Origin: Euglena gracilis
Lineage: Eukaryota
Reading direction: 5' to 3'
DNA: 64,000 nt
Assembly: GCA_039621445.1 (NCBI GenBank)
Contig: CP154954.1
Span: 34,507,737 to 34,571,736, forward strand
Shown one piece after another: positions 15,438-42,564 of the stretch. The notes under the pieces are model-generated. The model did no database searches. It was not told where the DNA came from and worked only from the letters and a program-made list of their open reading frames with translations. The translations under genes were made by a program, and so were the position numbers. Position 1 is the stretch's first letter, and each line of letters opens with the position of its first letter.

Positions 15438-18400
15438 GGACGGGGTAGCCTCCTCACCTGTGGCGATGTGGAGGAGAACCCTGGGCCAGCCAAGCGCCCG
15501 GCCTCCGGGCCACCTCATGGCGCACCGGCTGCTGCGGATGCCCGGGACCACGACCACCTCTTTCTGGACCTGGCCCACCCGGAACTTGACGCCGCGGTAG
15601 TTATCGACAGCGCGGGGCAGGAGTCCAACCTCCGGGGACGGCCCGCGCACAACCTTGTCGTGGGCACTCCCCCATGCGACATCACCCACGTCCTCCAACA
15701 AAGAATCTCGACCCTTATTTACCTGCCCTCGGCCTGCCAGCAACCTGTCTTTGACACTTTGGCAGATGCCATCAACGCATACACGCACGCACCCTCGGAC
15801 GCTGCTCTATTCAGCGTCCTATCCTTCCCGAAACTCGTCCTCCGACCGGTGTCGACTACCAAACCACCGCCGGCAGCGGAGCTGGAGTCCATCCTGCTGA
15901 GGCGTACCAAACTGTTCCGCGAGGGGGACTACGGCACCCTTCTGACAGAGGCACTAAAGGACGCACAGGCTCGACACTCCGTCGTGGAAACCAGGGCGGA
16001 AAAACGCTCAAGAACGCAGCCGACCGCCCTCAGTGAGGCCATCACGAGACGTGTGCGCACCCTCACCTCGCAGAAGGGGCGTCCGCGAAGGCAGTCCAGC
16101 TACTGCTCTCTGAGGGCGCGCACCAACCGGATGATCCGGATGTCTGGGCTGCCCTGGAGAAGTTGCACCCCAGCGGCAGACAGGTGGACACCAACCGCCT
16201 CCCGCGACATGTTAAGCCCTTCCCTGAGAACCACATCCCGGAATGGGAGGACAGACTGAAGGAGGCCATCCGCCGTTTCCCACGGGGTTCCGCCGCAGGC
16301 CCGTCGGGCCTGCGGCCCAGCCACCTCCAAGACTGTCTTCGTAGGCCGGGCCGGGGAGCCAAGCTGATCACAGCCCTTGCGCGGCTGACCCAGTTCTGGA
16401 TTGACGGCCAGCTACCACCGCACCACGCCGCGGCCTGGTGCTGCGCGAATCTGACCCCACTCCGCAAGAAGGACAACGGGGTGCGGCCAGTGGCGGTTGG
16501 GGAGACCATCCGCCGCCTGGTAGGGAAAACGCTGCTCCGCTCGCCCCCACCCAGGTCGGGGTTGGGGTACGGAACGCCGCCGAGGCCGTTGCCCTGGGCA
16601 TGCAGCACCTCGTGCTTCAGCTGGGGGACACCTCACCCTGGGTTTCCCTCCAGGTGGACTACTCCAATGCTTTCAACACAGTTGACCGAGGGGCGATCCT
16701 CACAGAGGCCGAGACCCGTACACCCAGTCTGTTCAATTTCCTGAGGTTTGCATACAGCGGGCCCGTCCCCCTCTTCTGCGGGGGCCGCACCATCCTTTCC
16801 CAGAGGGGCACACACCAGGGCTGCCCTCTGGGCCCCATCGGGTTCACCCTGGCGCTGCAGCCGCTGCTGGACCAGATAACCAGGGACGGCCAGCTGCTAT
16901 GGAACAGCTGGTACCTGGACGACGGCCTCCTGGTCGGAACCCTCGACAGGATTGAACACTGCCTCCGTTTCCTGCTGCAAGAGTCCCACCGCATCGGCCT
17001 TGGCCTCAACCTACAGAAGTGCGTCATGTGGGGCCCGGGAGCGCGGAGTGCACCCAGTTGCGACAGATTGCAAGTGGTCCCTTGGTCACCAGGGGAAGGC
17101 ATTACCGTGCTCGGAATCCCAGTAGACCACCCCGCGTCCTCCGACACCACCAAGAAAGCGTGGGCGGATGCTGCCGCCAAGATCGAGAAGGCCTCATCTA
17201 CCATAACGTCCCTCACCGACGCCCAGGTGGCACATCACCTTCTGCGGAGCTGTCTAGACGGCTGCAAAGTGAACCACCTCCTACGCGCGTCCGACTCGTA
17301 TGGCAGCCAAGATAAGGTTACAGGTTGCTCGGAGGTCATCATGAACGCCTTCGAGGACATACTGGGCACGGCACTGAACCCACAACAGCGGACACAAGCG
17401 TCGCTGCCCCTATCCAGCGGGGGCTGCGGCCTGCGCGTCCCGTCCTGCACTCAGCCCGCAGCCAGGATCTCCTGCCTTGCAGACTTCTACTCAGACGGGG
17501 CCAGGCGCGTGGGTGTGCCCGACTACGCATCCGGCCTGCAGCTACCCCTGGTCGCGCCCGTCCTGGACGACCTCCGGGGCAGGCTAGGAGCCAACCATGC
17601 CACGGTCACCACCTTCCTCCACAACCCACAACGACTCGCCTCCGCGGACCAAGAACCCCGGAGGCAAAAGTGGTGGAACCACGAGCTGGGCAAAAAGGCG
17701 ATGGATGGCCTTGTGGACCAGGCCCGGCCCCGCGACCAGAACCGCCTCCTTGAACAAGCCACGGGGTTCGGACACGGGTGGATGGCGGCCACCCCTTCCA
17801 ACAACTCCCACACCACCTTCTCTAGCGAGGAGTACACCTTGGGACTGAAGTGGTGGTTAGGGCTTCCGGTGCTGGAGGACGTCAGCCAGCCGTGCACAGG
17901 GTGCGGCCAGCCTCTGGACCAGGAAGGCGACCACCTGCTTTGCTGCCGCAGGAACAACTTCTCAGCCCGGCACAACGCTGTTCAGGACGCTCTGTTTCTA
18001 ACCTTGTCCAACAGCGGTCACCGGGTGCAGAAGGAAGTTTCCCTGCCAACGGCCCGAGACAGTCACCTACGCCCGGCGGACCTCCTGCTGGACTGCTGGT
18101 CCGAGGGGAAGCCGACGGCGCTGGACGTTACCGTCTGCCACGGATGGCAAGCGGCAGAACACACAGCGACCCGCGAACGCTGGAGATCCTTCCTGAAGAG
18201 GAGGGAGGACGCCAAAAAGCAGAAATACAACGTGCCATGTCAGCAAGCAGGGTGGGGCTTCACACCTTTCGCCCTCGGGACATGGGGTGGCATGGGACCG
18301 GAAACGGCCAAGACACTGAGCAGAGTGGCCAAACGCGCATCGTCCTGGCAACAGGGCGCTGAGCGCGAAACCAAGCAAGCGGAAATCTACCAAAATGTGG

Positions 18401-18459: not shown

Positions 18460-18842
18460 CCACGGGAGGAGCCACCCCAAAAAACAACAACACACACACA
18501 ACACAACCACACACCCACACCCACACACGCACACACACCCACACCCACACACACACACACGCACACCAACACACCACAACCATCCGCACGCCCTCCCGCC
18601 CGCGCCAAGCAGGCCGCCTCACCCCTACCGTCAGCCACCCCAGCCGTCAGCCACTCCAGCCGTCCCTCTGCGCCTTATATTGAAGATGGGCCTTGCCCGT
18701 TTTCCTCCTGCCCTGCCCTGCACCACCTGTATATACTTTTAACCTCCTCCGGACCTTCAAACCCAGTAGGCTGTGCCACTCGTCGGTGGATTCGGTTCGC
18801 CCCACCACCGCTATCCGGCTAAGTCGGCCCCTCCCAGCTCAA

Positions 18843-20726
18843 ACTACACGCCAGCTGGAGGAGGTTGTACATTTGGTCCTTGAAAAGGGACCACCCATTG
18901 GTGTTGACCTGAATACCAACAAATGCACCCTTTGGGGGCCAGCCTTCCAACCCGACCGTTTTCTCTTCCTGGAGGGGTTGCAACGCATCCCCGTAACTCC
19001 ATACATTCCTGGTTCCGGAATCAAGTCCCTCGGGGTTCCAATTTGCCATCCGGAGGACGGGACATTTGCCGAACGTGTGTGGTTTGGGCGGTGCGAAGAA
19101 GCTATGAAGGCGTGTTCAGCCTTGCAGAAGGTGCCTTCTGCGCACATCCACTTCACCATTCTAAGGCTGTGTCTGGACGCGTGCAAGGTTAACGACCTGT
19201 TGAGGACTACTCCAATTGGCCTTGCAACCATGCAGTGCACGCTGCTAAGCAAAACCCTGCGGAATACCGCCAGCATCATTGTCGGGCGGCCGCTGGAAGA
19301 GGACCAGTGGCGCCAGGCCACCTTGCCTGTCCGGTTGGGTGGGTTGGGCATCCGGGACCCTACCACGGAGCGCCCGATCGCCAGGTGGGCCGCCACACTT
19401 GACTTTCTTGTTCGCGGCGACCGCGTCCTCGACTTGCCACCCATCTGTGGGATGAACCCCCTACCTTCGGAATTTACCGCCCAGGTGGAGGCCATCAAGG
19501 GTCTATGTGAGCTCCCACCGATTGCAAAGGCCTTTGTTGAGGACCCAAAAAGTCCGGAGATGCTGCCTCAAGAAATGACGGCACGGAAATTCTGGGGACA
19601 ACAGTGTGCAAAAGCCCGACAGCAAGCTCTGTACAACTCACTCACGGGTAGCGATAAACTGAAAATGGCATGTCAGATGAAGCCACATGCTATGGCTTGG
19701 GCCTCCGTTACGCCGTCAGCCGCCACAAGGACGCTCATACCAACAAGGGAATTCCAGGCCCTGATGCAATGGTCCCTGGGTGCTCCGGTTGTTTCGCCTT
19801 CAGATGCCTGTCCCGGGTGCCCTCGGTGCCACAACCCCTTGGACGCAAGAGGCCATCACCTCGTTTGTTGCCACCGGAACAACATTGTTCGGCGACACGG
19901 GGCGGTGCAGTCCTACATCCTTGGGCTGGCCCAAAAGGCAGGTTTCCCGGCCAGAAGAGAGGAGAGTGCCCCTGATGGTTCCCGCCCGGGCGACGTATTT
20001 GTGATGCGATATGATGCAAACGGTCCGGCGGCAATCGATGTGACCGTTCGCCACCCCCTTGCACCTTCCCGCGTACGGCCAGGATTGGAAGACCTTGGTA
20101 AATGGCATGAGAGCCAGGAGGAAGACAAAATCAAAAAAGTATGGAGACGGTTGTAAGCGCAGAGGGTGGACGTTCATCCCCTTTGTCCTCGATTGCTACG
20201 GAGGAATGGGGGAGGCAGCGCTTGCCTTTGTTGGAAACTGTGTTCACTTGCTTGCGGGACAACATGACGCATGGGAGAGGCGAGCAGCGGAGGCAAACTG
20301 CTGGCAGGGCCTCAGCATGGCCCTTGCCAGAGAACTGGCGAAACAGCTCGTGTGGGGCCAATGCCCTGACGACCTCAACGAAGGAGGTGGCATGGACACT
20401 CACCACCCATACAGCACATGAGCTACCCCTTCGGGCTCCACTATCCCGAAGCAACCCCTCCGCCTCCGGCGGTGCTTCCTGAACTAGCGGAGGCCTGGAA
20501 ACGGCCCGCCACGCACAGCCAAGGGGGCAGCGAATCGGGACCATGCCATGATATATAAGGAATGCCCCCTGCAACAACCAAGAACCAATGCAGCACGTCG
20601 GAGCTGCAACGACGCCCCCGAGGAGCCGCAGGGCGTGAAAGACAGCTGAAGCCGGAATCACCGGCCCACCCGTCATCAACACCCAGACCTTAAACGGCAC
20701 CGAGCCCTGCCACCTCCCCATTGCCT
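18843..20726 (+). mobile_element. E2a: 5'-truncated near-identical copy of the 3' part of E2
   Basis: Matches 22875-24766 apart from a 9-bp deletion (ACAAGTGTA), one extra A near 20135 and a few substitutions. Confidence 0.9.
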
Positions 20727-23700
20727 CCGCCGGGCACCAGCCATTACAATTTCTTCGCAAAAATCACCCGGAACAGCCCACTCAGAGTCCCCTCAGGGGG
20801 GTTTTTGAGGTCGCCGAGTCCGAATATCCGCTCACACCGACGTGGTGGAGCCGCCAGAGCCGGCATTCGTCAAGACCGTCCTGGTAGAGAGCGAAGCCTC
20901 AAGCTCCTCGACCCCTGCGGAGAATGGGCATTGGCGGATTCTCCAAGCCACGCAAAGCGGTCAAGCACAGGGTTTTTGAGGTCGCTGAGTTCAATTATCC
21001 TCTCGGATGGACGTGGTGGAGCCGGCAGAACGGGCATTTGTCAAATCCTTGGACCTTTTGGGAAGCGGAACGGCCTTCCCCGCAAGCTCCATGCCTCCGC
21101 TCACCCTCGGACCGGCAGAGGGGACAGCCTGCTGACATCAGGGGATGTCGAATCAAACCCAGGCCCGGGTCCACCAACCTTCCCTGAAGCGAACAACACC
21201 TTGGTGCCAATGCTGTATGACTTTGAACAAAACGCAGAGGGTACAATTGGCTTCCTCATGGCGACAACCATGCCTCCGTTGCAGCCCCCGCCGCAAGTAT
21301 CCCCTTCCTCACAAGATGCCAGGGAGCTTCAAGACCTGCTGCAACGGCTCATCAGCCGGCCACCGCTGGAGGCCACCCTCCCCGCAACAAATAGCCCAGG
21401 GCCCACAAGAGGACCCAGTGCGTTGGATGGGGTGGACGACGTTGAAATGGGGGTTCAATATCTACCCGGCATGAAAACTGGCACTGCCCTTCAATCCCCG
21501 TGCCCGGATCTCTCCCCGTCGTGGATGGAAATATCCTCGGATCCAAGGGGCACTGTTTCCACCATACCAAAGTGAGCCCTTCCCGCGGTCTGTGACGTGT
21601 ACTCCTGCCTTCTCCGGGCGTTCAACGAGAGGCCCACCTGGGAAACATTACATGGCCTGTGGGCTTTCCCCAAGGCTGTGTTGGCACCTTTGGGAAAGGG
21701 TGGACGCGGCCATTGGGCCCGGTTGGGAAGGGTCATCCGCGGCAGAGCGGAAGCTTATCTAAAACGAACGGTGGCAGACAGTTGGAAGGACTCTGCCCGC
21801 TTACCCCAAATGGGTCAACCTGTTCGCACCAGGGGCCAAGCCCGACGTGAGCAAGAAGTGCAAGAAGAAGCATTCGTACGCCGCCTTGAACGTTTGGTGA
21901 GCAAGGGTGCCGTTGGCAAGGCATGCCAGGTCCTGACTTCGGACGGCGTGCAAGATGACAAACACCCCGTTGTGCGCCAACGGTTGAACGATCTTCACCC
22001 GGCTGAGGAACCACCTGGCCGGGGCCCCACGGATAAACGGGTTCTGTTTCCGCCACCTGGAGACGAGAACGAGAGGAGGGACAGGCTTTCCATGGTCCGC
22101 AAAGCAGTGTTCAGTTTCGGAAAAGAATCGGCAGCAGGGCCATCGGGCCTAAAGCCGGACCACATTAAGGACATGCTTAGCAGGGAAGCTGGGGGACAGG
22201 CCGAGACACTGCTTGAGGGCCTCACGACCTTCGTCTTCTGCTGCATCAACACGGGATGGCCCGCCGGTGTGGCTGAAATCCTCACATCGGCACGCCTCAC
22301 GGCGCTGCGAAAGGTCAAACCGGCCACGACAGTGGATGACGCTGGGAACCTCACACCCAATGGGCAGGATCCCGCACAAGAAGGGACTCGGCCCATTGCT
22401 TCCGGAGAATGCTTGCGCCGACTGGTGGGCAAGGTGCTGATGCGCCAACCTGCCGTGCAAAAGTTTACCCAAGATGGGATGCCCGGGCAGTTTGGGGTGG
22501 GTTGTCCTGACGCCTGTGGCCTGATCGGCATGGGCCTCCAACACCTCGTGACCAGCCTCCATCATGGAGGCTCTCGTGACTGGGGAGTCTTGCAATTGGA
22601 CTTCAGGAACGCATTCAACTGGATCCGGAGGGATAACCTTCTCGAAGCAGCACGAGAACGATGTCCAGAAATGGTGACGTGGCTGGAGACCTGTTATGCA
22701 GAACACTCGAGCCTCTTTTTGAGCGACACATCCCTCCGAAGCCAGTCGGGGGTTCAGCAAGGCGATCCTTGTGGACCGGCTGCCTTTGCCATGGCAATTC
22801 AGAGTCTGGTGGAGGAAATCCATGGCGTTTGCGGATGGCAGGCCTGGTACCTGGACGATGCCCACATCATGGGGACTACACGCCAGCTGGAGGAGGTTGT
22901 ACATTTGGTCCTTGAAAAGGGACCACCCATTGGTGTTGACCTGAATATCAACAAATGCACCCTTTGGGGGCCAGCCTTCCAACCCGACCGTTTTCTCTTC
23001 CTGGAGGGGACAAGTGTATTGCAACGCATCCCCGTAACTCCATACATTCCTGGTTCCGGAATAAAGTCCCTCGGGGTTCCAATTTGCCATCCGGAGGACG
23101 GGACATTTGCCGAACGTGTGTGGTTTGGGCGGTGCGAAGAAGCTATGAAGGCGTGTTCAGCCTTGCAGAAGGTGCCTTCTGCGCACATCCAGTTCACCAT
23201 TCTAAGGCTGTGTCTGGACGCGTGCAAGGTTAACGACCTGTTGAGGACTACTCCAATTGGCCTTGCAACCATGCAGTGCACGCTGCTGAGCAAAACCCTG
23301 CGGAATACCGCCAGCATCATTGTCGGGCGGCCGCTGGAAGAGGACCAGTGGCGCCAGGCCACCTTGCCTGTCCGGTTGGGTGGGTTGGGCATCCGGGACC
23401 CTACCACGGAGCGCCCGATCGCCAGGTGGGCCGCCACACTTGACTTTCTTGTTCGCGGCGACCGCGTCCTCGACTTGCCACCCATCTGTGGGATGAACCC
23501 CCTACCTTCGGAATTTACCGCCCAGGTGGAGGCCATCAAGGGTCTATGTGAGCTCCCACCGATTGCAAAGGCCTTTGTTGAGGACCCAAAAAGTCCGGAG
23601 ATGCTGCCTCAAGAAATGACGGCACAGAAATTCTGGGGACAACAGTGTGCAAAGGCCCGACAGCAAGCTCTGTACAACTCACTCACGGGTAGCGATAAAC

Positions 23701-25000
23701 TGAAAATGGCATGTCAGATGAAGCCACATGCTATGGCTTGGGCCTCCGTTACGCCGTCAGCCGCCACAAGGACGCTCATACCAACAAGGGAATTCCAGGC
23801 CCTGATGCAATGGTCCCTGGGTGCTCCGGTTGTTTCGCCTTCAGATGCCTGTCCCGGGTGCCCTCGGTGCCACAACCCCTTGGACGCAAGAGGCCATCAC
23901 CTCGTTTGTTGCCACCGGAACAACATTGTTCGGCGACACGGGGCGGTGCAGTCCTACATCCTTGGGCTGGCCCAAAAGGCAGGTTTCCCGGCCAGAAGAG
24001 AGGAGAGTGCCCCTGATGGTTCCCGCCCGGGCGACGTATTTGTGATGCGATATGATGCAAACGGTCCGGCGGCAATCGATGTGACCGTTCGCCACCCCCT
24101 TGCACCTTCCCGCGTACGGCCAGGATTGGAAGACCTTGGGAAATGGCATGAGAGCCAGGAGGAAGACAAAATCAAAAAGTATGGAGACGGTTGTAAGCGC
24201 AGAGGGTGGACGTTCATCCCCTTTGTCCTCGATTGCTACGGAGGAATGGGGGAGGCAGCGCTTGCCTTTGTTGGAAACTGTGTTCACTTGCTTGCGGGAC
24301 AACATGACGCATGGGAGAGGCGAGCAGCGGAGGCAAACTGCTGGCCAGGAAGAAGCATGGCCCTTGCCAGAGAACTGGCGAAACAGCTCGTGTGGGGCCA
24401 ATGCCCTGACGACCTCAACGAAGGAGGTGGCATGGACACTCACCACCCATACAGCACATGAGCTACCCCTTCGGGCTCCACTATCCCGAAGCAACCCCTC
24501 CGCCTCCGGCGGTGCTTCCTGAACTAGCGGAGGCCCGGAAACGGCCCGCCACGCACAGCCAAGGGGGCAGCGAATCGGGACCATGCCATGATATATAAGG
24601 AATGCCCCCTGCAACAACCAAGAACCAATGCAGCACGTCGGAGCTGCAACGACGCCCCCGAGGAGCCGCAGGGCGTGAAAGACAGCTGAAGCCGGAATCA
24701 CCGGCCCACCCGTCATCAACACCCAGACCTTAAACGGCACCGAGCCCTGCCACCTCCCCATTGCCTGCCCAACCACTCTGACTCACGTGGACGAAGAACT
24801 CCGGAAGCTGATCAACAGCGGCCTCACCTCGCGCCTTATACTGTTCTCTTTGCTCGCCCCTTTTACCTTCCCTCCCTTCACCAGCGTGCACAGACTGTTG
24901 CCTCTGTACATAGCCTTACTCCCCTGAACTCTTCAAATCCAGTAGGCTGTGCCACTGGTCGGTGGATTCGGTTCGCCCCACCACCGTTCGGCAGGTTGCA
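20727..25000 (+). mobile_element. E2: CRE-like retrotransposon lacking its 5' end; 2A - RT - CCHC - RLE - 3' module A
   Basis: 2A GRGDSLLTSGDVESNPGP at 21114-21167; ORFs 20721-21575 and 21597-24461 are in frame and separated by one TGA; module A at 24935-24986. Confidence 0.9.
21114..24461 (+). CDS. E2 2A-RT-RLE protein (in-frame TGA at 21573-21575)
   Basis: SAAGPSGLKP; RPIASGECLRRL; DFRNAFN; GVQQGDP; WYLDD; LPVRLGGLG; CPRC..HHLVCC..RRH; RPGDV..IDVTV. Confidence 0.9.
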
Positions 25001-26541
25001 TTTTGAGTGTCTATTCTGAGTGTCTATTTTTTTCGTCTGCATAATCACCATGGCTGCAAAGTGGCCGGATGGCCCTCCAGAAGACCCTAAGACTCAAGAC
25101 AATACACCCCTTGTCAATCAAGCTGCTACCACAACCAACCCTTCAAGTACACCTACTGTTGCAGTGGACACTGGACAGTTGGAGCTGCTGGCCAAGATGT
25201 TGTTGCCGCTGTTGGTGCCGGTGCTAACCACTGCTGTGGCCCAACGACTCACTGTTGACCGCCCTGTACATAGTGACAGAGAAAGTCAAGACAGCAGCTC
25301 ACAGAGAAGGAAGAGGACATGGCAAGAGAGGGAAGAGCATGAAGAGTACCTACAGAGAAGGTTTGGAAGAGATTACAAGCCCCCATGGCAGAGAGGTCGA
25401 CCCAGTTATCATATATCTCAACAGAGTTCTCCACAGCCCCAGCTCCATCAGCAAGTGAGTCTGGGGCCCCCCTGTACAGCAAGCCCATCAGTGGGCATTC
25501 CACAGTCAGGCCCATCAGTGAGCATTCCAATGAACAGCCCATCCCAATGCCCACCAGTGGGTAGAAGTCAAGTATGTCCATCTGTCACATCAATCATACA
25601 AATGTACATTCCATCACAGAGCAACCTTTGGGGTGAACCCCTGCAATCTCAGCAACCACTGCAATCAAACTGGAGCAGAGAAGATGACCAGAGGAAGAAT
25701 TGGACCAGAGAAGAAGAGCAGAGAAGGAGAGAGGCTGAACTCTTCAGAAGCCTCAGAGCCTTTCTCAGCACAGGCCAGAGTACACAAGTCCGCCCCTCCC
25801 AACACCATTACACAACCCTGGCCTGCCAGCACCCTTAATCCCAGATGTGGTACTGGCATCACCATCAGCCTTCCAATATGGTTTTCTGCCTGCAGCTTTC
25901 CCTTTTGTCTCACAAAGTCCCCCCCAAAGAGGGGACAACTCAACACAATACCTTCACCCAGTAAAACAAGTGGATCAAGAATTTCATCCCAAGGCAACTC
26001 CAAATCAAAAGGAGTCAGCAAAACAACCCCCCCCCACCCAAAATAGGAGGATCATCAACCCCAGCCAAATGCAACCCCAAAAAATCTCAGCACCAGCCCC
26101 CCAATATCAGCCCCCCCTGCAAGAGGGGGGGGGGGCCAGGCCCACCATTTCGCATTTTTAAAATTCCAACAAAACCCACCATGTTTGATGGCACACAGTG
26201 GGCCAAACTGGGCACAGTGATCCTGCAGGAGGAACCCAGCCCCTTTCAATGGCAAGACCCCCCCCAGGCAACTGATTTACCAGCCTCCCCACCCAACACC
26301 CCCCTGGAAGGGGTCCCAGTTTGGGAAACACCAGAGTTTCGGTCCCTCAGGGAAGAATTTTTTTGGAGAAGGCGCATGAGACAGCAAGCAGGAGGCATTT
26401 TATTTCACGAGAAGGTCGCCAGAAAACTGGCAAACATTCAGGAAAAGTGGGTCGACATTGGCAGAACAGTGGACATTCGGCAGTCACAAAAAATGGTGCA
26501 CACTGACATGAAACTCACGTTGCCACTGGCAGCGCCAAAAG

Positions 26542-28707
26542 TTGTGCAATCGCCCCCCCCCACCAAAAAAGAACCTCACCCTGGAACGGATCAGAATCGC
26601 CCAAATTCTTCATCAATACCGACCAGAGGAACAACGTGAGGAGGGACTGGACATGTCGCACATAAAAAACGTACGCCGAGCTATCGCACAAAAAATCAAA
26701 CAAAAAGTGCCAGCAGCAGAAGCAGTCCGCCCCCCGAGGACAAAGAAGAGGCTGACACCCTCCCGAGAACCAACCCTGCCCATTGCCTGGCGATACTGCC
26801 CAAGAATTTGGCTGATGGATGACATGCCCAGACCGTTACAGTTTGCGTGTGAGGTTGGATTGGCTGATCGTCTTTCCCCGTCTGTGTGGACCACCAGCGA
26901 TCTTGATGACTCAAATGACTCCCTGTCGGACTATTACTCTTGTGCTGCCACAAAAAATTTCCACATGGCAGAAACAGTTGGCACCATACACCTCTGCACT
27001 GCATGCCCACACGGGGGGAAGAAGCCGGAAGACGCATATCTGAAGACGGGGCGAGGTGATTCCCTGACAACAATGGGTGATGTGGAAACCAATCCAGGCT
27101 CGCTGACGGCATTTAATGGACCCTGTGGTGAAGTCATGGATCTATTGGACCAACTTGTTGCCATGAACATGACTGATTTCTTTCGGATCAAGGCTGAAAT
27201 ACCACTGCGGCAAGGCCCCGATGGCTCCTCCCGTTCACTTCTTCCCAAAGCTACATACTGGCTGAAATGCACTTTGTGTGACATTGAAACCATCACTGCC
27301 TCGGCAGGTTGGTGCCTGCACCACAGGGAAACCTGCCCTGTTTTTTCAGCCACAGTATATCCATCTACTGAGACAGCAAAAGTACACTCCGTAACAAGCC
27401 GAGGATACACCCAAGAACAAGCTCGGGAAAAGTTTTCAGAAGGACACCAGCCGACTGGAAGGGGGGAACGAATCACCACCCATGGTGACGTCCAAACACA
27501 ACCAGGGCCCATCTACTTCCGTCTGGCCACCATGGAAAGACCGACAATCCCTATCTCCAGGGGACTTCAAGAAAATTTCATTCGGCACAGACTGCTGGCG
27601 AGCCTTCAAGAGGTGGATGCAGAACTTCAAACTTTCCGAGACACCTTCCCTTCCGATGTCCTTGTTGAGGACGCTACCGTCTATGAGCTCACCGAATGTT
27701 GGGAAGTTTTGAGAGGAGTTCTGTTTGTGCTCATAGGGCTATGGCCACATCGACCACCACGTCACGACTCCCCATCGAGTGTGCATGCCATTATGTGGTT
27801 GCTGACCTGTTTATGGTCCGAAGTATGCAACATCGGCGAGGCCTTTCACTTCTACCTGCCCCCTATTCACCTAATGACACTACCCAACGTTCTCCGGCCG
27901 AGAGGCACTTTCCCCAGAGTACCTCCAACGGAGCCCTCCTCGTCCGACCTCTGCCCATTGAATGTACACACCGTTGATATCCTGGACATCATGGCCTTGT
28001 TACGTCCGACAAGATCAGTAGTTTCAGTTGACCGTCACATCCGGAGGGCACGACGGACAGCACAAAGACGACCAAACCACCAACGAGGTGACATAGGCCG
28101 TAACAACGCTGTCATATCCGAGAGGCCCACACACCAAGATGTCACACTTTGTGGTGACGTTCACCTCGAGCCAGGACCTATTTATCGGATAACCCCTCGT
28201 GAAGGACCCCTATCCATGCGACCTAGCACCCGGCCCCATTGCCGACGACCAACCAACCAACCAGGGCCTTCTAAGTTGTCAGATGTGGCCCCAGGGCACG
28301 CCAACCACGTACGGCAACCGATTGACCAGGAAAAAACGCGGTATGGGTACAGTCCTCCCCGATGTGGCAGGGGCAAAAGCCTTGCCAGTTGTGGCGACAT
28401 TGAAAGCAACCCAGGTCCCACAGAAACCCGCCCTCCCCAGCAGGAGGACGTCGAAATGGCCTCAGCCGCACAGACCTCTGCTGTGCCGCCGACGGAGGTA
28501 CCACTCCTTGGATCTTGGTTTCCAATGCACTCAACGCCGCTGCTCTCGCCTACTTTGTCCCAGGCTATAATGCCGTTTCCCAGTTTGAACGGGGGCCCCG
28601 GGGCACCTGCAGCTGAACAAATCATGGTCATTGACGAACTAGAGTCCCGGGTGCGCTCAGCGATTTCCGAAATTCACGGGTGTGCGCGCCACAGGGCCAG
28701 GGGTTGA
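26542..28707 (+). CDS. E3 polyprotein middle region with four 2A-like motifs and a C2HC Zn finger
   Basis: GDVETNPGS (27049-27102), GDVQTQPGP (27457-27510), GDVHLEPGP (28126-28179), GDIESNPGP (28366-28419); CTLC..H...C. Confidence 0.75.
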   Translation: MCNRPPPPKKNLTLERIRIAQILHQYRPEEQREEGLDMSHIKNVRRAIAQKIKQKVPAAEAVRPPRTKKRLTPSREPTLPIAWRYCPRIWLMDDMPRPLQFACEVGLADRLSPSVWTTSDLDDSNDSLSDYYSCAATKNFHMAETVGTIHLCTACPHGGKKPEDAYLKTGRGDSLTTMGDVETNPGSLTAFNGPCGEVMDLLDQLVAMNMTDFFRIKAEIPLRQGPDGSSRSLLPKATYWLKCTLCDIETITASAGWCLHHRETCPVFSATVYPSTETAKVHSVTSRGYTQEQAREKFSEGHQPTGRGERITTHGDVQTQPGPIYFRLATMERPTIPISRGLQENFIRHRLLASLQEVDAELQTFRDTFPSDVLVEDATVYELTECWEVLRGVLFVLIGLWPHRPPRHDSPSSVHAIMWLLTCLWSEVCNIGEAFHFYLPPIHLMTLPNVLRPRGTFPRVPPTEPSSSDLCPLNVHTVDILDIMALLRPTRSVVSVDRHIRRARRTAQRRPNHQRGDIGRNNAVISERPTHQDVTLCGDVHLEPGPIYRITPREGPLSMRPSTRPHCRRPTNQPGPSKLSDVAPGHANHVRQPIDQEKTRYGYSPPRCGRGKSLASCGDIESNPGPTETRPPQQEDVEMASAAQTSAVPPTEVPLLGSWFPMHSTPLLSPTLSQAIMPFPSLNGGPGAPAAEQIMVIDELESRVRSAISEIHGCARHRARG

Positions 28708-31700
28708 TTGAGAATTTTGTGCCGTCCTCACCACAAGGGCAAGAGCAAGAATGCCAAAATGGTCGAAGGCCGCAGCCCCCCGTGGTTCCAGCACCAGCGC
28801 AATCCTCGATGAACGCTGATACGCTGCAAGTCACTCCCTTCTCGCAACCTTGCCCACCAATGCAGCCATCTTGGGAAGAAATTTCCCAAGACACTCGGGG
28901 CACGTTGGTCCATATCCCACGGGGAGCGTTGCGAAACGTTGGGCTCGCCTTCTGCAGCACCCTCAGTCGCTTTGTGTCAAAGCCAGGATGGGAGACCCTA
29001 CACGCACTTTGGTGCTTCCCAAAAGCTGTGCTTGCTCCATTGAAGCGGAGCGGGAAAAGCCATTGGGCTGCAGTTGGACGGAAAATTACTGAGAGAGCCA
29101 ATGCCTACCTCAACCGGTCCACAGAAGATTCGTGGGATGAGACTCGCCAAATTCGCGATGCACAAAACCCAAAGAAGAGAACACGAAGTCAGACAAAAAA
29201 TTTCGATGCTGAAAGCCAAGAAAGATTGTGCAACCGTGTTCAAAGCCTTGTCAGCCATGGGGCGGTCAGTAAAGCCTGCCGCATGCTGACTTCTGATGGA
29301 ATCCAAGATGCAGACGACCCGCTAATCTTGGAACGGTTGGCTGCCTTGCACCCTCCTGAACCCCAACCTGGAAGGCAAAATCTGCCTCCGGACTTCCCTC
29401 GCCTCGAATTCGATCTCAGTGAAGATGCAACCAGGGAGCGCCTAATTGAAATACGGAAAGCAGTCATGTCTTTCCCGAAGGAGTCCTCACCAGGACCGTC
29501 TGGACTTCGTCCAGATCATCTTAAAGACATGCTCTCTGATCCCCTGGGGACACAATCAGAACAACTCCTCACAATTTTGGACCAATTCGTCCGAACATGT
29601 TTGACAAACGGAATCCACAACTCTGCGGCATGGATTTTCGCTGGTGCCCGTTTGACTCCTCTTCGAAAACCCTGCAATCCAAGCGAAAACCTTGATGAGC
29701 TTGGCAATACCAACCCCATTCCTGACCCAAAGAAGGATGGCACGCGACCAATTGCAGCTGGGGAATGCCTGCGCCGATTGGTGGGCAAATATTTGATGAG
29801 GCACCCCAAAATCAGGGACCGCCTTAAAGAACTGCAGCCACTACAATGCGGTGTAGGGGTCCAGGGGGCATGTGAACTCATTGCTATGGGACTGCAGCAA
29901 GAAGTAAATCACCTGCACATGCAACAGGACAGCACCTGGGCTTTGTTACAGGTAGATTTCAGCAATGCTTTTAATTGCGTAAAAAGAAAGACAGTCCTTG
30001 CTGAAGTGGCTAAACGCTGCCCGGAGGCGTACGTTTGGTTCGAGAGTTGCTACGCCGAACACAGCCCGCTCTTTTGTGGGTCATCACACCTTCGGAGTGC
30101 CTCTGGCGTACAACAAGGGGACCCTTGTGGCCCAGCCGGATTCGCCTTGGCGTTGCAATCTCTCGTCGAGTCCTTGCAAGACGTGGTGCCACTGCAATTG
30201 TGTTATTTGGATGATGGACACATCCTGGGAACCCTCCCACAATTACATGCAGCAATTACAGAAATTCAACGACAGGGGACGCTACTAGGCATACACCTCA
30301 ACGCAAAAAAATGCCGCATGTGGGGCCCTGCAGCAACAGAAGCCAATCGTGCTGAAATGCCGCCAAACAGCCCACTTCGTGCAGTCCCAATCGTGAACTA
30401 CTCCCCTAATTCTGGTATACGGGCCCTGGGAATCTCGGTATGCCATCCACAAAGCGGTGGCTTTGCGGGGGAAGTGTGGGCTGAACGTGCAACAGGTGTG
30501 CAGAAAGCTTGCCGGGCCCTTTTGAACCTGCCGCAAGCCCATATTCAGTTCTGTCTCTTACGAACCTGCCTAGATGCATGCAAAGTTAATGACCTCATGC
30601 GTGCAACAGAACTGGGGCAGGCAAATGACGCATGTGCTCTGTTGACCAAAGAAATCAGGAACACAATGAGCAACATTGTTGGATCCCCAATCGATGACAA
30701 CCAATGGGCTCAGGCCACCCTACCCGTGCGTCATGGCGGACTCGGAATTCGGGACCCATCACTGGAACGTCTCCCAGCACGTATATCCGGCATTGTGACG
30801 TTTGTCAGCAATGGCAGACGCACCCTGGGCCTGGCAGACCGAGGAGTACCGAAAGACACTGCGGAGTGCCTGTCCTCTGCCAACTCCATCCTCGAAGGAA
30901 CTCCCCCAACGCAAACATGGGCCGCGGATGTATCACTGCTGAACGAAGCCCAAAGCCCTCACATTCAACAGAAGTGGTGGGGTGAATGCTTTGCGAAACA
31001 ACGACAAAAAGTATTATCCTCTAACCTTCACGGTCAAGACGCCGTCCGGTTCGCAAGCCAACAGCAGCCCCACGCAATGGCCTGGGCTTCTGTCACACCA
31101 TCCTCTGGACTGAAAACATTGGTCGCTTCTGCCGAATTCAAAGGATTTCTAAAGTGGTCACTGGGAGCACCAGTTTGTCCACCAACGGGATCAACGTGCC
31201 CACGCTGCACCAAGCCAATGGACAACCTGGGTAATCACCTTGTATGCTGCAGCTCAAATGGCATCACGCGGCGACATGGTGCAATCCAGGACTTTGTGTT
31301 CCAACTGGCACATGATGCTGGATTTACTGCAAAAAAAGAACAAGGAGGTCCAGAGAGAACACGCCCGGGCGATGTCCTCATCAGCAGACTTGACGCCAAT
31401 GGTCCTGGAGCAGTGGATATCACAGTGAGACACACAGCAGCACCGTACAGACCGTTGCGTGACACAGCTGAACTAACTGAATGGTATGAACGCCAAGAGA
31501 AGGAAAAACATTCAAAATATGACGCCACCTGTGGGAGGATGGGATGGACCTGCATTCCATTTGTTGTTGACTGCTATGGCGGCCTAGGCCAAGAAGCGCT
31601 AACCTTAATGTCAACACTGATGAAACTTCTCCTCGGTCAACAAGATGCATGGTCAAAAGGCAAAACTGAAGCCGACACATGGCAACTTCTATCAATAACT

Positions 31701-31802
31701 ATTGCGCGAGAGATCGCGCGACAAGTAATCTGGGGACGGTATGCAGGCAACGACACAGATCCAGAAGTAACCAACACCATACACCAGCCGTATTGTCTGT
31801 AA
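28680..31802 (+). CDS. E3 reverse transcriptase + CCHC + RLE (uninterrupted 1040 codons)
   Basis: SSPGPSGLRP; DFSNAFN; GVQQGDP; YLDD; CPRC..NHLVCC..RRH; RPGDV..VDITV. Confidence 0.93.
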   Translation: MCAPQGQGLIENFVPSSPQGQEQECQNGRRPQPPVVPAPAQSSMNADTLQVTPFSQPCPPMQPSWEEISQDTRGTLVHIPRGALRNVGLAFCSTLSRFVSKPGWETLHALWCFPKAVLAPLKRSGKSHWAAVGRKITERANAYLNRSTEDSWDETRQIRDAQNPKKRTRSQTKNFDAESQERLCNRVQSLVSHGAVSKACRMLTSDGIQDADDPLILERLAALHPPEPQPGRQNLPPDFPRLEFDLSEDATRERLIEIRKAVMSFPKESSPGPSGLRPDHLKDMLSDPLGTQSEQLLTILDQFVRTCLTNGIHNSAAWIFAGARLTPLRKPCNPSENLDELGNTNPIPDPKKDGTRPIAAGECLRRLVGKYLMRHPKIRDRLKELQPLQCGVGVQGACELIAMGLQQEVNHLHMQQDSTWALLQVDFSNAFNCVKRKTVLAEVAKRCPEAYVWFESCYAEHSPLFCGSSHLRSASGVQQGDPCGPAGFALALQSLVESLQDVVPLQLCYLDDGHILGTLPQLHAAITEIQRQGTLLGIHLNAKKCRMWGPAATEANRAEMPPNSPLRAVPIVNYSPNSGIRALGISVCHPQSGGFAGEVWAERATGVQKACRALLNLPQAHIQFCLLRTCLDACKVNDLMRATELGQANDACALLTKEIRNTMSNIVGSPIDDNQWAQATLPVRHGGLGIRDPSLERLPARISGIVTFVSNGRRTLGLADRGVPKDTAECLSSANSILEGTPPTQTWAADVSLLNEAQSPHIQQKWWGECFAKQRQKVLSSNLHGQDAVRFASQQQPHAMAWASVTPSSGLKTLVASAEFKGFLKWSLGAPVCPPTGSTCPRCTKPMDNLGNHLVCCSSNGITRRHGAIQDFVFQLAHDAGFTAKKEQGGPERTRPGDVLISRLDANGPGAVDITVRHTAAPYRPLRDTAELTEWYERQEKEKHSKYDATCGRMGWTCIPFVVDCYGGLGQEALTLMSTLMKLLLGQQDAWSKGKTEADTWQLLSITIAREIARQVIWGRYAGNDTDPEVTNTIHQPYCL

Positions 31803-32401: not shown

Positions 32402-35400
32402 GGATTTTGAGTGTTCGAGGGTGCGAGGCTATACACAACGAAGGAGTGTGGGTCGAGCGGTGAGAGCAAGGGCAAAGCCCAAGCAGAGAGTGATGGGTGG
32501 AGAGGTGTGAAGTGTGCATGCGCGGTGTTCTCCGGCTTTGTGGCTCCGGAAGGCTGGTGCAACGGGGAGCATTTTCACCTTACGAGTTCAGGATCATACG
32601 ATCTGTGGCTCTTTCGGCCAACCGCAGCTGCCGTGCAACTGCACGGGCCAGTGTGATGGCCAAGTTTTCGGTCAATTCCTGAAATTTTCGTTGTTTGGCT
32701 GTTCCAGAACATGAATTGGTCGCGAGGCGTAGGACATCGCGTAGGAGTTTGGAGGCTGCCGGTCCTGTGCACCCCCAGGGGTTAAATGCAGCCCCAATGT
32801 ACTCCCACTGGTGGCGGGCGCACCGTTCTTCAGCTTGTGTTCTCTTGTGCATTTCAGCGTCTGGTAGAGTACGCTGAACTCGGGTCAAGTTCAGAGGCCA
32901 CCGTGATGGGGCCAGCGGGTGTTCAATGGTGACATCAACAGCGAGATGCTTCCCTTTGTTCCACCCCAGGAGGAGGAGATCAGCGTCACGGGTGCCACCC
33001 TCGCATCCCTGTTCTTTGCGAAGAGTGATGCCTGCGCGTTGGCACAGGTCAAAAATGGCGTAACGAACACAGTTGTGCCTTTCTGTTATGCCATTCCTTC
33101 TGCAAGCCAGGAGGTGATCGCCAAATGGATCGACTGCCTCAGCACACAGGGGGCACAGAAGCATGTCCGTTGTTGGGATCAGGGGTAAGCCAGTCCAGAA
33201 GCGTAGAAGCAGTCTGTATTCGTCCGGAGCTAGGACGGTATTCACCGACCTGGATGGTAAGACGGTCATCCAATTTTGAAGGAAGGCAGAGGACTGGCAA
33301 CGAAGCCTGGCAATGTCCCGAAGAGGTGCACCGTCCTCCAAAGTTGCCACGCGAACGGCGTGGAAACGTTCGGCCCACCACGATTGAGTGGAGTGATCTG
33401 GGGTGGAACAGGCCAAGGAAGAAGGGTTGGCGATCCAGGAAGCCAATGGTTCGCTGTGCGGGCCCAAGGTGTCACGAGCCAGTTGGGCGACGGGGATGGT
33501 ATCTGGTAGCGGGAGCATGCGCCAGGGCGGAGGGATATTGAAGCCGGGCGCTCGTTGGGAAAAACCCACGCAAGCAGCCAAACGGGCAGCTGGTCTTTCC
33601 AACTGGGGGTCTGTGATGCCCCACCCTGTCTTATTGCACGGCAAGGTGATTTGTTTCCAATGCAAGGTAGACTGGGGTGCCCCCACAATGTCACAGGCAG
33701 CACTCCGGATGGAGTCGGAGATCACTTGCACACTGTGCGTCCCGGAGGAAATGTTTGTCTGACGCAGAAGGTGCGTGACGCGGCAGCCATCCAGAAAGTT
33801 GCGCAGCAAACAATGTTGGAGTTGGGGATCCGGCAGTTGTTGGAGGCGCGAGATGGTAGCTTGAAATTTTTCGGATGCCTTGGCCCACGTGGTGTCAGAA
33901 AAGGTGCAGTCACCAGGATAGTCGCAAGGTACCCCTAGGCACAGGATGCCACTGCCCGGTCCCCATGGGGTGACCGGGAAGTTTTGTGCAAGGTGGTCGG
34001 GAGGCAGGATCTGAAGAGCCGGGGGTTTCGGAGTGGCACAGGGTACACCTGGTCCCCATAAGGCACACTTGGAGGGGTTGAGGTGGAGCCCAACGCTGCC
34101 AAGTGCCGTGGCCAGAGAAGCCGTGAAAGGCAGAACATCAACGGCAGGGCCGATGACAGTACCGTCGTCCAAGTACCACGCCTGCCACACCGTGTTGGGC
34201 AAATTGGCCGAAGCCTGTTGCAGCGCCTGATGGAGACCCAAGGCAAAGGCAATGGGCCCACATGTGTCCCCTTGATGGACACCGGTCCTGCTGTGACACA
34301 GCACGTCACCCTGGCAAAGAAGTGGGACGTCTTCTCCGTAGGAGAATCGGAGCCAGTTGTAAAGGGACGGGCAGAGGTCCAGGGATGCCTGCAGGAACGC
34401 GGATCGATCAATGGTGTTGAAGGCGTTGGAAACGTCGGCCTGGAAAACCACCCAATCGCCATCCACTGGCAGAGACGCCAGTGCGGCCTGTACCGCCAAC
34501 CCGACTGTCTCCGCACCGTAGCGCACCCCCACTCCCAATTGCTGCGGGAACAGCTGAGACGTTTCCGCTTTGCACTGCGGGTGTCGCAACAGCATTTTCC
34601 CAATGAAGCGCCGCAGGCAATCCCCCACGGCGATCGGCCGTAGACCGCCACCCTTTTTGGTAAGTGGGATCAGGTTTGACGTACCAAAAAAGATCGAGGC
34701 TTTTGCTGGCAAAGAGCCCTCCCAGGCCTTCTGAGCCAGGGACCCCAAGGCTATGTGTAGCGGGCCTGTCCCGGCCTCACGGTCCAACAAGTCCCGAAGG
34801 TCTTGTGGACGGAGACCAGATGGGCCGGGGGCGCTGCCACGGGGGAAAGAGGCTGCAGCTTCTTGCACAATTGAAGACCAGTTGAAGTCAGTAGTTTGTG
34901 GAGAATTGCCTGCCCCAGGCAGCGGCAAACTGGCTCGTAATGGAGACCCCTGTGGATGGAGCGACAGGAGCTTCTGCATCACTGCTGGATCCCCGGGCGA
35001 TGCCAGGGGCAAAGAGGTGAGAGCGTCCACGGCCTTGCCGAGGGCCCCTTCTTCAACGAGTCCGCGCACCCGGTCCATAAGACCACGTGCCACAGAGTCA
35101 GAAGTAGAGCCAGAGGGGTTGGCGCGGGTGGTGGGCCGCTTTCGCCGTCTGTCAGAGCGAAGCGGATCAAACAGAGCGGCAAACTCTCCTGCGTGCCACT
35201 GTGCCAGTCTCTTTTCCAGGAGGCAATGCAATGTGTGTTGATGGGAAGACGAGGTTTTGGGAGGGGCACCAAGAACGAGTTTCGGAAAAATGAACAGGCG
35301 GTGTAGAGCTTCCCAGGTTTGGGCTTGGAGAAAGGTCTGAATGGAGGATGCAAGGGCGTCACAAATTGCGTGACGACTTGGCAGTGGGATACGGCGAAGA

Positions 35401-36685: not shown

Positions 36686-37851
36686 GTATGTTTTGGTGGT
36701 ACCCCGCGGTGGTGGGGCGAACCGAATCCACCGACCAGTGGCACAGCCTACTGGATTTGAGTGTTCGAGGGTGCGAGGCTATATACAACGAAGGAGCGTG
36801 GGTCGAGCGGTGAGAGCAAGGGCAAAGCCCAAGCAGAGAGTGATGATGGGTGGAGAGGTGTGAAGTGTGCATGCGCGGTGGTGTTCTCCGGCTTTGTGGC
36901 TCCGGAAAGCTGGTGCAACGGGGAGCATTTTCACCTTACGAGTTCAGGATCATACGATCTGTGGCTCTTTCGGCCAACCGCAGCTGCCGTGCAACTGCAC
37001 GGGCCAGGGTGATGGCCAGGTTTTCGGTCAATTCCTGAAGTTTTCGTTGTTTGGCTGTTCCAGAATATGAATTGGTCGCGAGGCGTAAGACATCGCGTAG
37101 CAGTTTGGAGGCTGCCGGTCCTGTGCAACCCCAGGGGTTAAATGCAGCCCCGATGTACTCCCACTGGTGGCGGGCGCACCGTTCTTCAGCTTGTGTTCTC
37201 TTGTGCATTTCAGCGTCTGGTAAAGTGCGCTGAACTCGGGTCAAGTTCAGAGGCCACCGTGATGGGGCCAGCGGGTGTTCAATGGTGACATCCACAGCGA
37301 GATGCTTCCCTTTGTTCCACCCCAGGAGAAGGAGATCAGCGTCACGGGTGCCACCCTCGCATCCCTGTTCTTTGCGAAGAGTGATGCCGGAGCGCTGGCA
37401 CAGGTCAAAAATGGCGTCACGAACACAGTTGTGCCTTTCTGTTATGCCATTCCTTCTGCAAGCCAGGAGGTGATCGCCAAATGGATCGACTGCCTCAGCA
37501 CACAGGGGGCACAGGAGCATGTCCGTTGTTGGGATCAGGGGTAAGCCAGTCCAGAAGCGTAGAAGCAGTCTGTATTCGTCCGGAGCCAGGACGGTATTCA
37601 CCGACCTGGATGGTAAGACGGTCATCCAATTTTGAAGGAAGGCAGAGGGTTGGCAACGAAGCCTGGCAATGTCCCGAAGAGGTGCACCCTCCTCCAAAGT
37701 TGCCACGCGCACGGCGTGGAAACTTTCGGCCCACCACGATTGAGTGGAGTGATCTGGGGTGGAACAGGCCAAGGAAGAAGGGTTGGCGATCCAGGAAGCC
37801 AATGGTTCGCTGTGTGGGCCCAAAGTGTCACGAGCCAGTTTGGCGACGGGG
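36686..37851 (-). mobile_element. E4b: 5'-truncated E4-family copy (RLE + 3' UTR) inserted in an SL exon, 12-bp TSD TTGAGTGTCTAT
   Basis: ORF 36936-37859 is nearly identical to the E4 C-terminus; ATAGACACTCAA at 36674-36685 and 37852-37863. Confidence 0.88.
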
Positions 37852-41400: not shown

Positions 41401-41895
41401 GAATGCACTCGGGGAAACAGAGCAAGATACTCGGCGTTGTGTGCTGTCCTGTGAATTAGGCAACATGGCCACGTCCCCTTGGGACTGCGAGACAGGTTGG
41501 CCAGGGTTCCTTACTCCGGAACCGGCAGAAGGTATGGTACATGCTTGTTGAGGTTGTTGAGCGGCCGTCGATGAAGAGACAGCAGCTGGCTGAATGGACG
41601 GTTGCAATGGGGTTGGTGGTTGTGGTGACAGTAAAGTGGCGGGGTGGACTGTCCCCAGCAAGGGCAGGAAGGAATCAGCCTGGTGGCCGAGCAGCCATTG
41701 ACCACCGGCATCAAGGCCGGAGGCAGTCGGTGGGAAAGGGAGTTGGGGGAAAACCGGAAATGCGTTCATCGGAAACCAGGAGCCAGGGGCCGCGCCTGTT
41801 TGCGAGCATTGGGAGGCTGCCGACATTTCTACATCGTCGTTTGGGCCTGGGTTGGCCTCCACATCCCCGCATGTCAGGGCTTCTTCTCCCCTCCC
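38434..41895 (-). CDS. E5 2A + reverse transcriptase + RLE (frameshifted near 41214-41260)
   Basis: SAAGPSGLRP; DLSNAFN; GAQQGDP; WYLDD; LPIRLGGLG; RPGDV..IDVTI. The first Cys of the CCHC knuckle appears mutated (FPKC). Confidence 0.88.
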
Positions 41896-42564
41896 CGAAG
41901 GGACGTGTTCCACAACGAACGAGCCTGGAAGGGTGAGGTTTTCTGGCGCGACTTTTGCAGGCCAAGAAATTGGTGGAATACCTTGGCGTTGGGTGACTGG
42001 GACGTGAGGGCGTGGGCACAGAGTGTTTGGGGTTTGCCTTTTCAAGCCTTGGCTGACTGTTTGTGGGGGACTTTTCAGGCCAAAGTGGTGCAAAATGGTG
42101 TGAGGGTGGGGCCTTTGCAGGCCCAGGGAATTTACACACTGGGGGAAAATGGTGTCAATGGCAGGTTGGGGTGGCAAAGTGTTTTTGGTTGTCCAAACAA
42201 AACTGTTGCAAACATTGGAGCGGAAAGTAACACTCAATGGTTGGCAGATGGGGGGCCCTTGCAGGCCCAGGGCTTTTGCAAGCCACTGGGACAAAATGCT
42301 GCAGGTTGAAATGGTGTCACAGGGGGGCCATTGCTGTCCCAAGGAATTTGCACACATGGGAAAAAAGGTGTAAATGGGAGGTTGGGGTGGCAAAATGTTT
42401 TTGGATGTCCAGTCAAAACTGCTGCAGAATGTGTCACAGCTTTTGGTGTAACATGTGCTGTGAAAACTCAGGGTTTGCCATTGCAGTTGGACAGAAGATT
42501 GGGATGCAATGCAGAAAACAGAAGTGAACACAATGGAGCTGAAAGTAGCACTTAATGGTTGGCA

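Follow-up and report, generated by a model that had tools for sequence, protein, structure and literature searches.

How many proteins would leave a single reading frame that carries four serial 2A-like motifs, two of which depart from the canonical core at the same two positions? The question is raised by E3, a reverse transcriptase (RT) element of Euglena gracilis found in a 64,000-nt stretch of contig CP154954.1 (assembly GCA_039621445.1, positions 34,507,737 to 34,571,736 of the forward strand), hereafter the window, in which a nest of at least five RT elements (E1-E5) is present. A 731-aa open reading frame (ORF1, 26512-28707, plus strand, translation table 1) contains the open frame 27049-28419, in which a sequence-only reading had noticed four 2A-like motifs, three of them non-canonical, separating three unknown cargo peptides. 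The reading we prefer, to which we give a probability of roughly 0.55 on sequence comparisons, is that ribosomal skipping (StopGo) would take place at motifs 1 and 4 only and leave a fused middle protein ahead of the RT protein.

The series of motifs itself is well supported. The pattern GD[VI]xxxPGx has nine matches in the six frames of the window, all of them in sense frames upstream of RT ORFs, against a mean of 0.29 and a maximum of two in 100 first-order shuffles; the four matches of E3 stand in one frame at 27040-28419, as first claimed. Chance matches, or motifs with no relation to 2A, have the short motif length as their sole supporting point, and a chance origin is refuted by the counts against shuffles; most of the motifs also share the GRG-x-(S/A)-L-L-x-C context of relatives, and the probability of this explanation is negligible. 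The class A core octapeptide (D/G)(V/I)ExNPG/P is matched by motif 4, and by motif 1 in contig copies. Motifs 2 and 3 do not match it: in the window as in other copies, each departs from the canonical residue at positions 14 and 16 (p14 and p16). These two motifs are, to judge by their context, 2A-derived sequences outside the class A definition. The stretch upstream of the core, where class A peptides have a hydrophobic or Leu-rich run within some 12 residues, reads DSLTTM, ERITTH, QDVTLC and KSLASC in motifs 1 to 4, weaker than the GRGxxLL(T/S)CGD of relatives, especially in motifs 2 and 3. Motifs 2 and 3 also resemble each other (12 of 24 positions identical, E = 0.008; both GDVQxxPGPI-Y/H), are unlike at synonymous positions, and show no detectable direct repeat between them at the DNA level. 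Their likeness probably fits an old duplication of a motif that was already altered.

Other copies of E3 separate the altered states of the family from those of the window. Contigs from four public runs (X1, X8, X14 and X15) were placed on 26400-28800, and all statements on variants cover the 40 of 139 variant places that are listed. The E3 stretch is present in 20 of 24 listed public runs, with at least half of its words in 14; 973 contigs of X1 and 1353 of X8 fall on it, with summed depths of 10^4-10^5 (summed contig depth being distinct from copy number), and the contig counts and depth place E3 in a very abundant repeat family. Position 27100 is C in all depth of four out of four runs (16 contigs in X1, 10 in X8, two each in X14 and X15) and T in the window, so the last codon of motif 1 encodes Pro in other copies and the Ser is private to the window; a protein copy, P0004, which is 94% identical to ORF1 over 369 aa, has Leu there. 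By analogy, the NPGS of the window might have kept partial activity. Motif 2 is identical in P0004 (GDVQTQPGP) and holds no listed variant. In motif 3 a C>G variant at 28164, which changes His to Gln at p14, has a depth share of 0.60 in X1, 0.95 in X8 and 0.94 in X14, giving GDVQLEPGP as the pile-up majority, and the Glu at p16 is without a listed variant. The single listed variant of motif 4, at 28362, is synonymous. Of the three motifs noted as non-canonical, QPGP and EPGP are thus common to other copies and NPGS is a private change. The sequence-only reading had proposed that motifs canonical in the consensus would point to simple decay of this copy; this is what we find for motif 1, and not for motifs 2 and 3, given P0004 and the pile-up.

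The same material restores the reading frame of the family. Residues 1-65 of P0004 align by tblastn to 26376-26570 in frame 3, and residues 55-423 to 26539-27645 in frame 1: the window copy shifts frame near 26553, a point at which some of the contig depth is a base short. At 28684-28687, two bases fewer are seen in part of the X1 and X8 depth and in all X14 depth, and this loss joins 26512-28707 and 28635-31802 in one frame. The family reading is one long ORF, and the window copy has two frame breaks besides the private change in motif 1. P0004 carries a frameshift of its own within segment B, the piece between motifs 2 and 3. It was the sole match in a protein word search with ORF1; a longer word search with residues 197-731 found nothing among 4748 candidates, which thus hold no full-length E3 polyprotein, and a metagenome contig scan with ORF1 gave 41 pattern matches, 0 of them confirmed.

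Published data on the 2A core set the expectation for motifs 2 and 3. According to the parts available of the sources cited here and below, N16 contacts nucleotides of the peptidyl transferase centre, N16A and D12A abolish the activity of F2A, and over one half of the substitutions of P19 keep >40% activity (Li et al. 2026, PMC12846837). When F2A and P2A were scanned, all substitutions of D12, E14 and N16 were <0.6 except E14H in P2A; the same study counted 580 RT-element contigs with putative 2As, and the peptides were highly active in only 43 (10.64898/2026.09.24.754024). Since each of motifs 2 and 3 has two core changes at positions that the scans find intolerant, both are expected to be dead or weak. 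The two motifs could instead be attenuated, skipping in a fraction of events and setting the ratio of fused to separate products, or stalling ribosomes and lowering the yield of RT. Their G-D-V and P-G-P are exact, with p14 and p16 alone changed, and GDV..PGPI has been retained in both despite synonymous differences; the Q and E states are common to the other copies seen, and in the intact relative P0010 only the last motif is canonical, p14 of the three internal ones being A, P or Q instead of E. Lowered downstream products are discussed by Odon 2013 (PMC3708506), and most of the retrotransposon 2A-like peptides tested in 10.64898/2026.06.17.732966 cut protein abundance instead of skipping. 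Attenuation has to contend with the published p16 substitutions, which are inactive or below threshold (none reached 0.6 in the two scans), with two core hits in each motif, with the weakened Leu-rich stretch (ERITTH and QDVTLC against SLLTC in relatives) and with the absence of Q or E at p16 from all 20 motifs of relatives. We regard it as unlikely, if a serious contender, and continue to favour StopGo at motifs 1 and 4 only.

The relatives in question show what the canonical arrangement looks like. When 1.84 billion representatives were searched in full with the cassette by HMMER, six proteins matched (P0004-P0009). Two more, P0010 (1481 aa) and P0012 (1273 aa), came from a profile search; both are intact polyproteins with a PF05869 Dam-like domain and an RT. 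Complete relatives have two to four serial 2As, and the 105-145-aa pieces between these carry C-x(1-2)-C-x(12-19)-H-x(3-4)-C. The order in P0010 is 2A, methyltransferase, 2A, zinc-finger module, 2A, 2A, RT and C-terminal domain; C2H2-like fingers follow the last 2A in P0005, P0007 and P0011. Among 20 motifs in seven relatives, NPGP is present in 20 and the complete canonical core in 16, and every one of the seven ends its series with a canonical motif. Of the four that deviate, one belongs to P0009 (A at p13); the others are the internal motifs of P0010, with A, P and Q at p14. As none of these 20 has Q or E at p16, either residue there is peculiar to E3. The internal 2As of P0010 read GDIAQNPGP, GDVPPNPGP and GDIQQNPGP, and its canonical last one follows 20 aa after the third. 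This arrangement suggests that the last 2A resembles a back-up tandem site and that p14 is relaxed in the clade.

The methyltransferase noticed in E1 belongs to the same scheme. In the E1 ORF at 13045-15600, residues 523-566 (14611-14742) match the Dam-like family PF05869 at 26.9 bits (cut-off 28.1), and the match sits between 2A motifs at 14437-14499 and 15426-15488, and the earlier claim that the E3 cassette takes the slot of the E1 methyltransferase is borne out. The proposal of a variable accessory cassette holds as well, for the 2A-delimited content of relatives differs. Judged from these arrangements, the region before the RT is a modular, 2A-delimited accessory region with one to four 2As, which may hold a Dam methyltransferase, a zinc finger or short spacers.

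The three pieces of E3 do not all fit the description of unknown cargo. Cut at the G/P junctions they are 136, 223 and 80 aa long, and with the 18-aa 2A tails removed they return the ~118, ~205 and ~62 aa given before. Segment A holds the CxxC..H..C finger seen at first inspection, CTLCDIETITASAGWCLHHRETC, and is matched by P0005, P0007 and P0008 at E = 5.8e-9 to 5.6e-5; in P0006 and P0009 the best match is on the 2A motifs, yet the same zinc-finger module is present. C57, C60, H75 and C79 are invariant in seven out of seven sequences (alignment A1), one relative having C-x1-C, as are one Pro, one Leu and the GRG with which the next 2A opens its upstream context. An AlphaFold2 (AF2) model from a small alignment has a predicted local distance difference test score (pLDDT) of 70-85 over residues 12-88, and in it strands 52-57 and 63-66 form a hairpin that bears the first two Cys, with the His and the last Cys on a helix (70-78). 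Listed variants of segment A lie outside the finger core except for the non-ligand H270 and two synonymous changes, and cluster in a low-confidence linker. The model had no match at E <= 0.001 in Foldseek against the PDB, and segment A scored 0.83 at best in the ESM Atlas, which is chance level. Several of the top VIA-align rows (spliceosomal, TUT1 or TUT4) are proteins that we take to carry RNA-binding fingers of the U1/matrin type, and serve as a lead only. On the strength of the invariant ligands, segment A is a predicted C2HC zinc-finger module conserved in this clade of elements, which in distant relatives stands between canonical 2As.

Segment B is the piece to which the description as unknown cargo still applies. 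A helical N-terminal half is followed by a Pro/Arg-rich basic tail that includes RHIRRARRTAQRR. No Pfam family was found in its own frame, and the other five frames gave one GPHH row (16.5 bits against a cut-off of 26.8). Among the 1.84 billion representatives the one relative of segment B is P0004, and there only over the segment's first 46 aa; a blastp comparison with every relative and with the other elements of the window returned P0004 only, and the best ESM Atlas score was 0.80 (recognition 1343, chance level). In these searches segment B is an orphan limited to the E3 family. Listed variants over ORF1 as a whole are 18 synonymous to 20 nonsynonymous (n = 38; 0.287 expected synonymous, p = 0.011), and in segment B nine to seven (n = 16; 29% expected, p = 0.02). 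A 309-nt contig from X14 (labelled organism B), 95% identical, has 15 differences, of which seven are listed in segment B and four are unlisted; those in segment B are five synonymous changes and two conservative ones, I>V and T>S. Between the window and P0004, 18 of 187 leader residues differ and three of 181 over segment A and the start of segment B (Fisher p = 0.0011); identity is 100% over the 46 aa that open segment B and 90% over the leader. The pattern argues modestly for coding constraint on segment B, part of which may perhaps be mere frame-keeping for the RT.

Segment C is read as a recurrent spacer between terminal tandem 2As and not as cargo. Outside its 2A part it matches relatives weakly, and spacers of 61 aa in P0005, 20 in P0010, 46 in P0011 and 47 in P0012 separate their last two 2As. 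All indels within 27100-28416 are in frame (6 nt in X14 and 18 nt in X15) and both are in segment C. Taken together with segment B, these properties allow a different explanation, in which neither segment B nor motifs 2 and 3 have a function: they would be filler, such as a decayed module or captured junk, kept only by their in-frame place before the RT, where selection acts on stops and frameshifts and spares amino-acid changes. Neither a relative nor a family was found for segment B, and its fold is predicted with low confidence; Pro/Arg-rich sequence of low complexity makes up the C-terminal half of segment B as well as segment C, segment C tolerates in-frame indels, and the window copy and P0004 are pseudogenes. 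This explanation leaves unaccounted for the synonymous excess of segment B, also seen as five to two in the diverged X14 contig, which frame-keeping alone does not predict, and the complete identity of the segment's start in P0004 against 90% in the leader. We consider it doubtful.

Under the preferred reading, StopGo at motifs 1 and 4 would divide the translation product into three: a leader of ~240 aa, ~440 aa of middle protein and the RT-endonuclease. Little or no skipping activity would be left in motifs 2 and 3, and if they no longer skip, the middle product stays one ~440-aa fusion. This would consist of zinc finger, helical segment, arginine-rich tail and spacer, and may act as the ORF1p-like nucleic-acid-binding or chaperone partner of the element. 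As motif 3 appears to be a diverged duplicate of motif 2, segment B was probably acquired beside an already altered 2A.

Several points weigh against this reading. Rare natural variants once thought dead (H at p14, H at p16, M or W at p19) are ~90% active or more in their own context (PMC12846837, in the part available), and by analogy motifs 2 and 3 could still be functional. The lack of variants in motif 2 or 4 is weak evidence, because 40 of 139 places are listed and only about one listed variant is expected per 63 nt. The ORF1p-like role is drawn from functional analogy only. The best solved-structure match of segment A has a VIA-align Z of 3.8, below the tool's noise guide, and segment B has an AF2 pLDDT of 45, its helices at 18-46, 55-77 and 89-112 being of low confidence. 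Selection in segment B gives a modest signal (p ~0.02), and the variants behind it are a subset chosen by the tool; selection to keep the frame for the downstream RT would by itself also explain the in-frame indels. The window copy, with its two frame breaks, and P0004 are both broken, and no copy intact from end to end was seen. RNA support is unusable: X15 (10 contigs, 90-99% identity) is RNA by guess, and the metatranscriptome run X20 contains 0.11 of the stretch's words, so that neither run speaks for expression or for a habitat.

The surroundings of the cassette identify the kind of element that carries it; coordinates are collected in Table 1. A profile of seven RT proteins (A2) finds solved R2 proteins best, at 7e-15 to 3.6e-10, and L1 ORF2p at 3.7e-7. 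The apurinic/apyrimidinic endonuclease (APE) family (Exo_endo_phos) was not found in any of the seven members (Pfam, E <= 0.1). In the C-terminal 250 aa, C59, H69, C73, R111, D114, D129, T131, E156 and K159 are invariant (alignment A3), an R..D, D.T, E..K pattern which we take to resemble the restriction-like endonuclease (RLE) of R2; a profile of the domain matched no solved R2 nuclease. E3 is most likely an R2-like non-LTR (lacking long terminal repeats) retrotransposon without an APE domain, its C-terminal domain being CCHC/PD-D-K-like by sequence. The 80 aa after motif 4 of E3 align with the post-2A region of E5 at 39% identity, which makes motif 4 the homologue of the terminal 2A before the RT protein. 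In E2 and E5 a single 2A and the RT share one frame, each with one in-frame stop; the stops lie at different aligned positions and are therefore independent nonsense hits, and both copies are pseudogenes. The leader and segments A, B and C have no Pfam family, those of the RRM and CTD of an L1-type ORF1p included, at E <= 10 beyond chance-level rows, and nine other large ORFs of the window have no Pfam match.

Table 1. Positions of the 2A motifs, segments, reading frames and RT elements in the window
Feature	Position	Strand	Description
Leader upstream of first 2A	26376..27099	+	Met of P0004 ORF maps to 26376
Motif 1, GDVETNPGS	27040-27102	+	LKTGRGDSLTTMGDVETNPG followed by S; last codon TCG in window
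Segment A, 136 aa including motif 2 tail	27100..27507	+	Predicted conserved zinc-finger module
Zinc-finger core C-x2-C-x14-H-x3-C	27268-27336	+	CTLCDIETITASAGWCLHHRETC; in segment A
Motif 2, GDVQTQPGP	27448-27510	+	QPTGRGERITTHGDVQTQPG followed by P; Q at both p14 and p16
Segment B, 223 aa including motif 3 tail	27508..28176	+	Helical N-terminal half, then Pro/Arg-rich basic tail
Motif 3, GDVHLEPGP	28117-28179	+	SERPTHQDVTLCGDVHLEPG followed by P; p14 = H (window), p16 = E
Segment C, 80 aa including motif 4 tail	28177..28416	+	Pro/Arg-rich spacer
Motif 4, GDIESNPGP	28357-28419	+	PRCGRGKSLASCGDIESNPG followed by P; canonical
Start of RT polyprotein in ORF1 frame	28417..28707	+	Ends at frame break ~28684-28687
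RT ORF, 1055 aa, C-terminal CCHC + R-P-G-D ... D-I-T-V ... E-x-x-K domain	28635..31802	+	RVT_1 5.5e-14
E1	~12.2-20.2 kb	+	RT element
E2	20.7-24.5 kb (20694-24461)	+	RT element
E3	~25.0-31.8 kb	+	RT element
E4	32.6-36.1 kb	-	RT element
E5	38.4-43.0 kb (38434-42939)	-	RT element

Some further features of the window concern the ends of the elements. The sequence just upstream of E3 is a mosaic of two parts: 24462-24766 matches 20422-20726, which lies upstream of E2, at 99.7% identity, and 24766-25002 matches a stretch within E4 in opposite orientation (35839-35603) at 99.6%. As the elements have otherwise diverged, matches this close suggest that a segment was recently duplicated, that insertions are nested or that the assembly is at fault here. 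A repeat of ~80 nt with 85-95% identity recurs near element ends (24902-24987, 4896-4960, 18727-18810, 36707-36787 and 43023-43079), and 32406-32700 also pairs with 36756-37056 and 4925-5213; the 3' flank of E3 agrees at 96% identity with sequence next to E4. The repeat and the shared flank could be a conserved end of the untranslated region or, as with R2-like elements that insert site-specifically, a target into which several elements inserted. An identical 55-aa peptide surrounds the C-terminal Cys/His motif at 19809-19874 in the 3' part of E1 and at 23850-23915 in E2; E1 and E2 thus appear to have nearly duplicate 3' ends. At 60941-61021 on the minus strand, a Cys/His-rich peptide, CDVCSLSYHWRCVNLCHEPKHGSWVCHSC, looks by eye like a PHD-type finger and matches a zinc-finger regular expression; it is unrelated to the retroelements.

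Sites of the 2A type have been known in retrotransposons since 2006-2013, and surveys of 2025-2026 list hundreds. The cases in the literature, as far as the available parts of it go, are APE-type elements, a Ty3-like RT and ORF1p/ORF2p-like proteins, mostly with single 2A sites, and Rao et al. 2025 (PMC12338488) give up to three 2A instances per eukaryotic gene. The closest in layout are the APE-type non-LTR elements L1Tc/Ingi of trypanosomes and Rex1, Crack, L2, CR1 and others of metazoans (PMC3708506), which like E3 have an in-frame class A GD(V/I)ExNPGP in the N-terminal part of a single RT ORF, proposed there to release an N-terminal product and/or to limit downstream RT. Those elements are APE-type and have, in the parts available, one 2A, whereas E3 and its relatives have an APE domain in 0 of 7, an RT nearest to R2 and as many as four motifs in series, with separate modules between them. 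Serial StopGo is likewise used by picornaviruses with multiple 2A(NPGP) (PMC11512398) to make small accessory proteins upstream of the replicase, but theirs are RNA virus genomes with unrelated modules, and E3 is a cellular retrotransposon. An N-terminal accessory domain, a 2A-like separator and lineage-variable cargo are also found in long interspersed nuclear element (LINE) ORF2p-like proteins with Josephin/OTU deubiquitinases from Haematococcus lacustris and Symbiodinium necroappetens (10.64898/2026.06.17.732966, part available). E3 differs from these in its C2HC module and orphan helical segment, in the Dam-like domain of its relatives and E1, and in serial motifs of which two are altered at p14 and p16.

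The R2/RLE elements share with E3 a single ORF, an RT closest to solved R2 (7e-15) and a C-terminal Cys/His motif followed by R-P-x-D ... D-x-T ... E-x-x-K. In the parts of the literature examined, 2A sites were not found described for this group, and the C-terminal domain of E3 has no sequence match to solved R2. Retrotransposons carrying DAM (10.64898/2026.05.21.726589) share PF05869 with the 2A-delimited region of P0010, P0012 and E1. The available part of that study assigns DAM to DIRS and LTR elements, and '2A peptide', 'skipping', 'self-cleaving' and 'NPGP' are absent from its main text. E3 itself has no methyltransferase. An R2-like non-LTR carrier of DAM with 2A sites may be an additional class. 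What appears to be new here is the R2-like carrier without APE, the three to four serial sites, C2HC and Dam domains as 2A-delimited units, and Q/E at p14 and p16 across the copies seen; these combinations were not found described in the available parts of the literature searched, and supplements of those papers may list such elements.

A bolder proposal would give motifs 2 and 3 a role of their own. GDVQxQPGP and GDVQxEPGP might represent a previously unrecorded natural class of StopGo, with Q or E at p16 and Q at p14, that skips partly or only on host ribosomes and sets the ratio of fused to separate products. R2-like elements would then possess polycistronic ORFs in the style of picornaviruses, with up to four StopGo sites and swappable modules (zinc finger, Dam methyltransferase and orphan proteins). 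We rate this proposal as improbable.

E3 and its relatives form a natural system for the gain and loss of accessory genes by retroelements, and the Q/E shared at p14 and p16 lets nature itself test the strictness of the StopGo core outside viruses. The predicted zinc-finger module constitutes a protein family that has yet to be characterised and is easily recognised by its genomic setting. Should motifs 2 and 3 be no more than dead sites, the loss of 2A activity would have fused neighbouring modules into a new multidomain protein.

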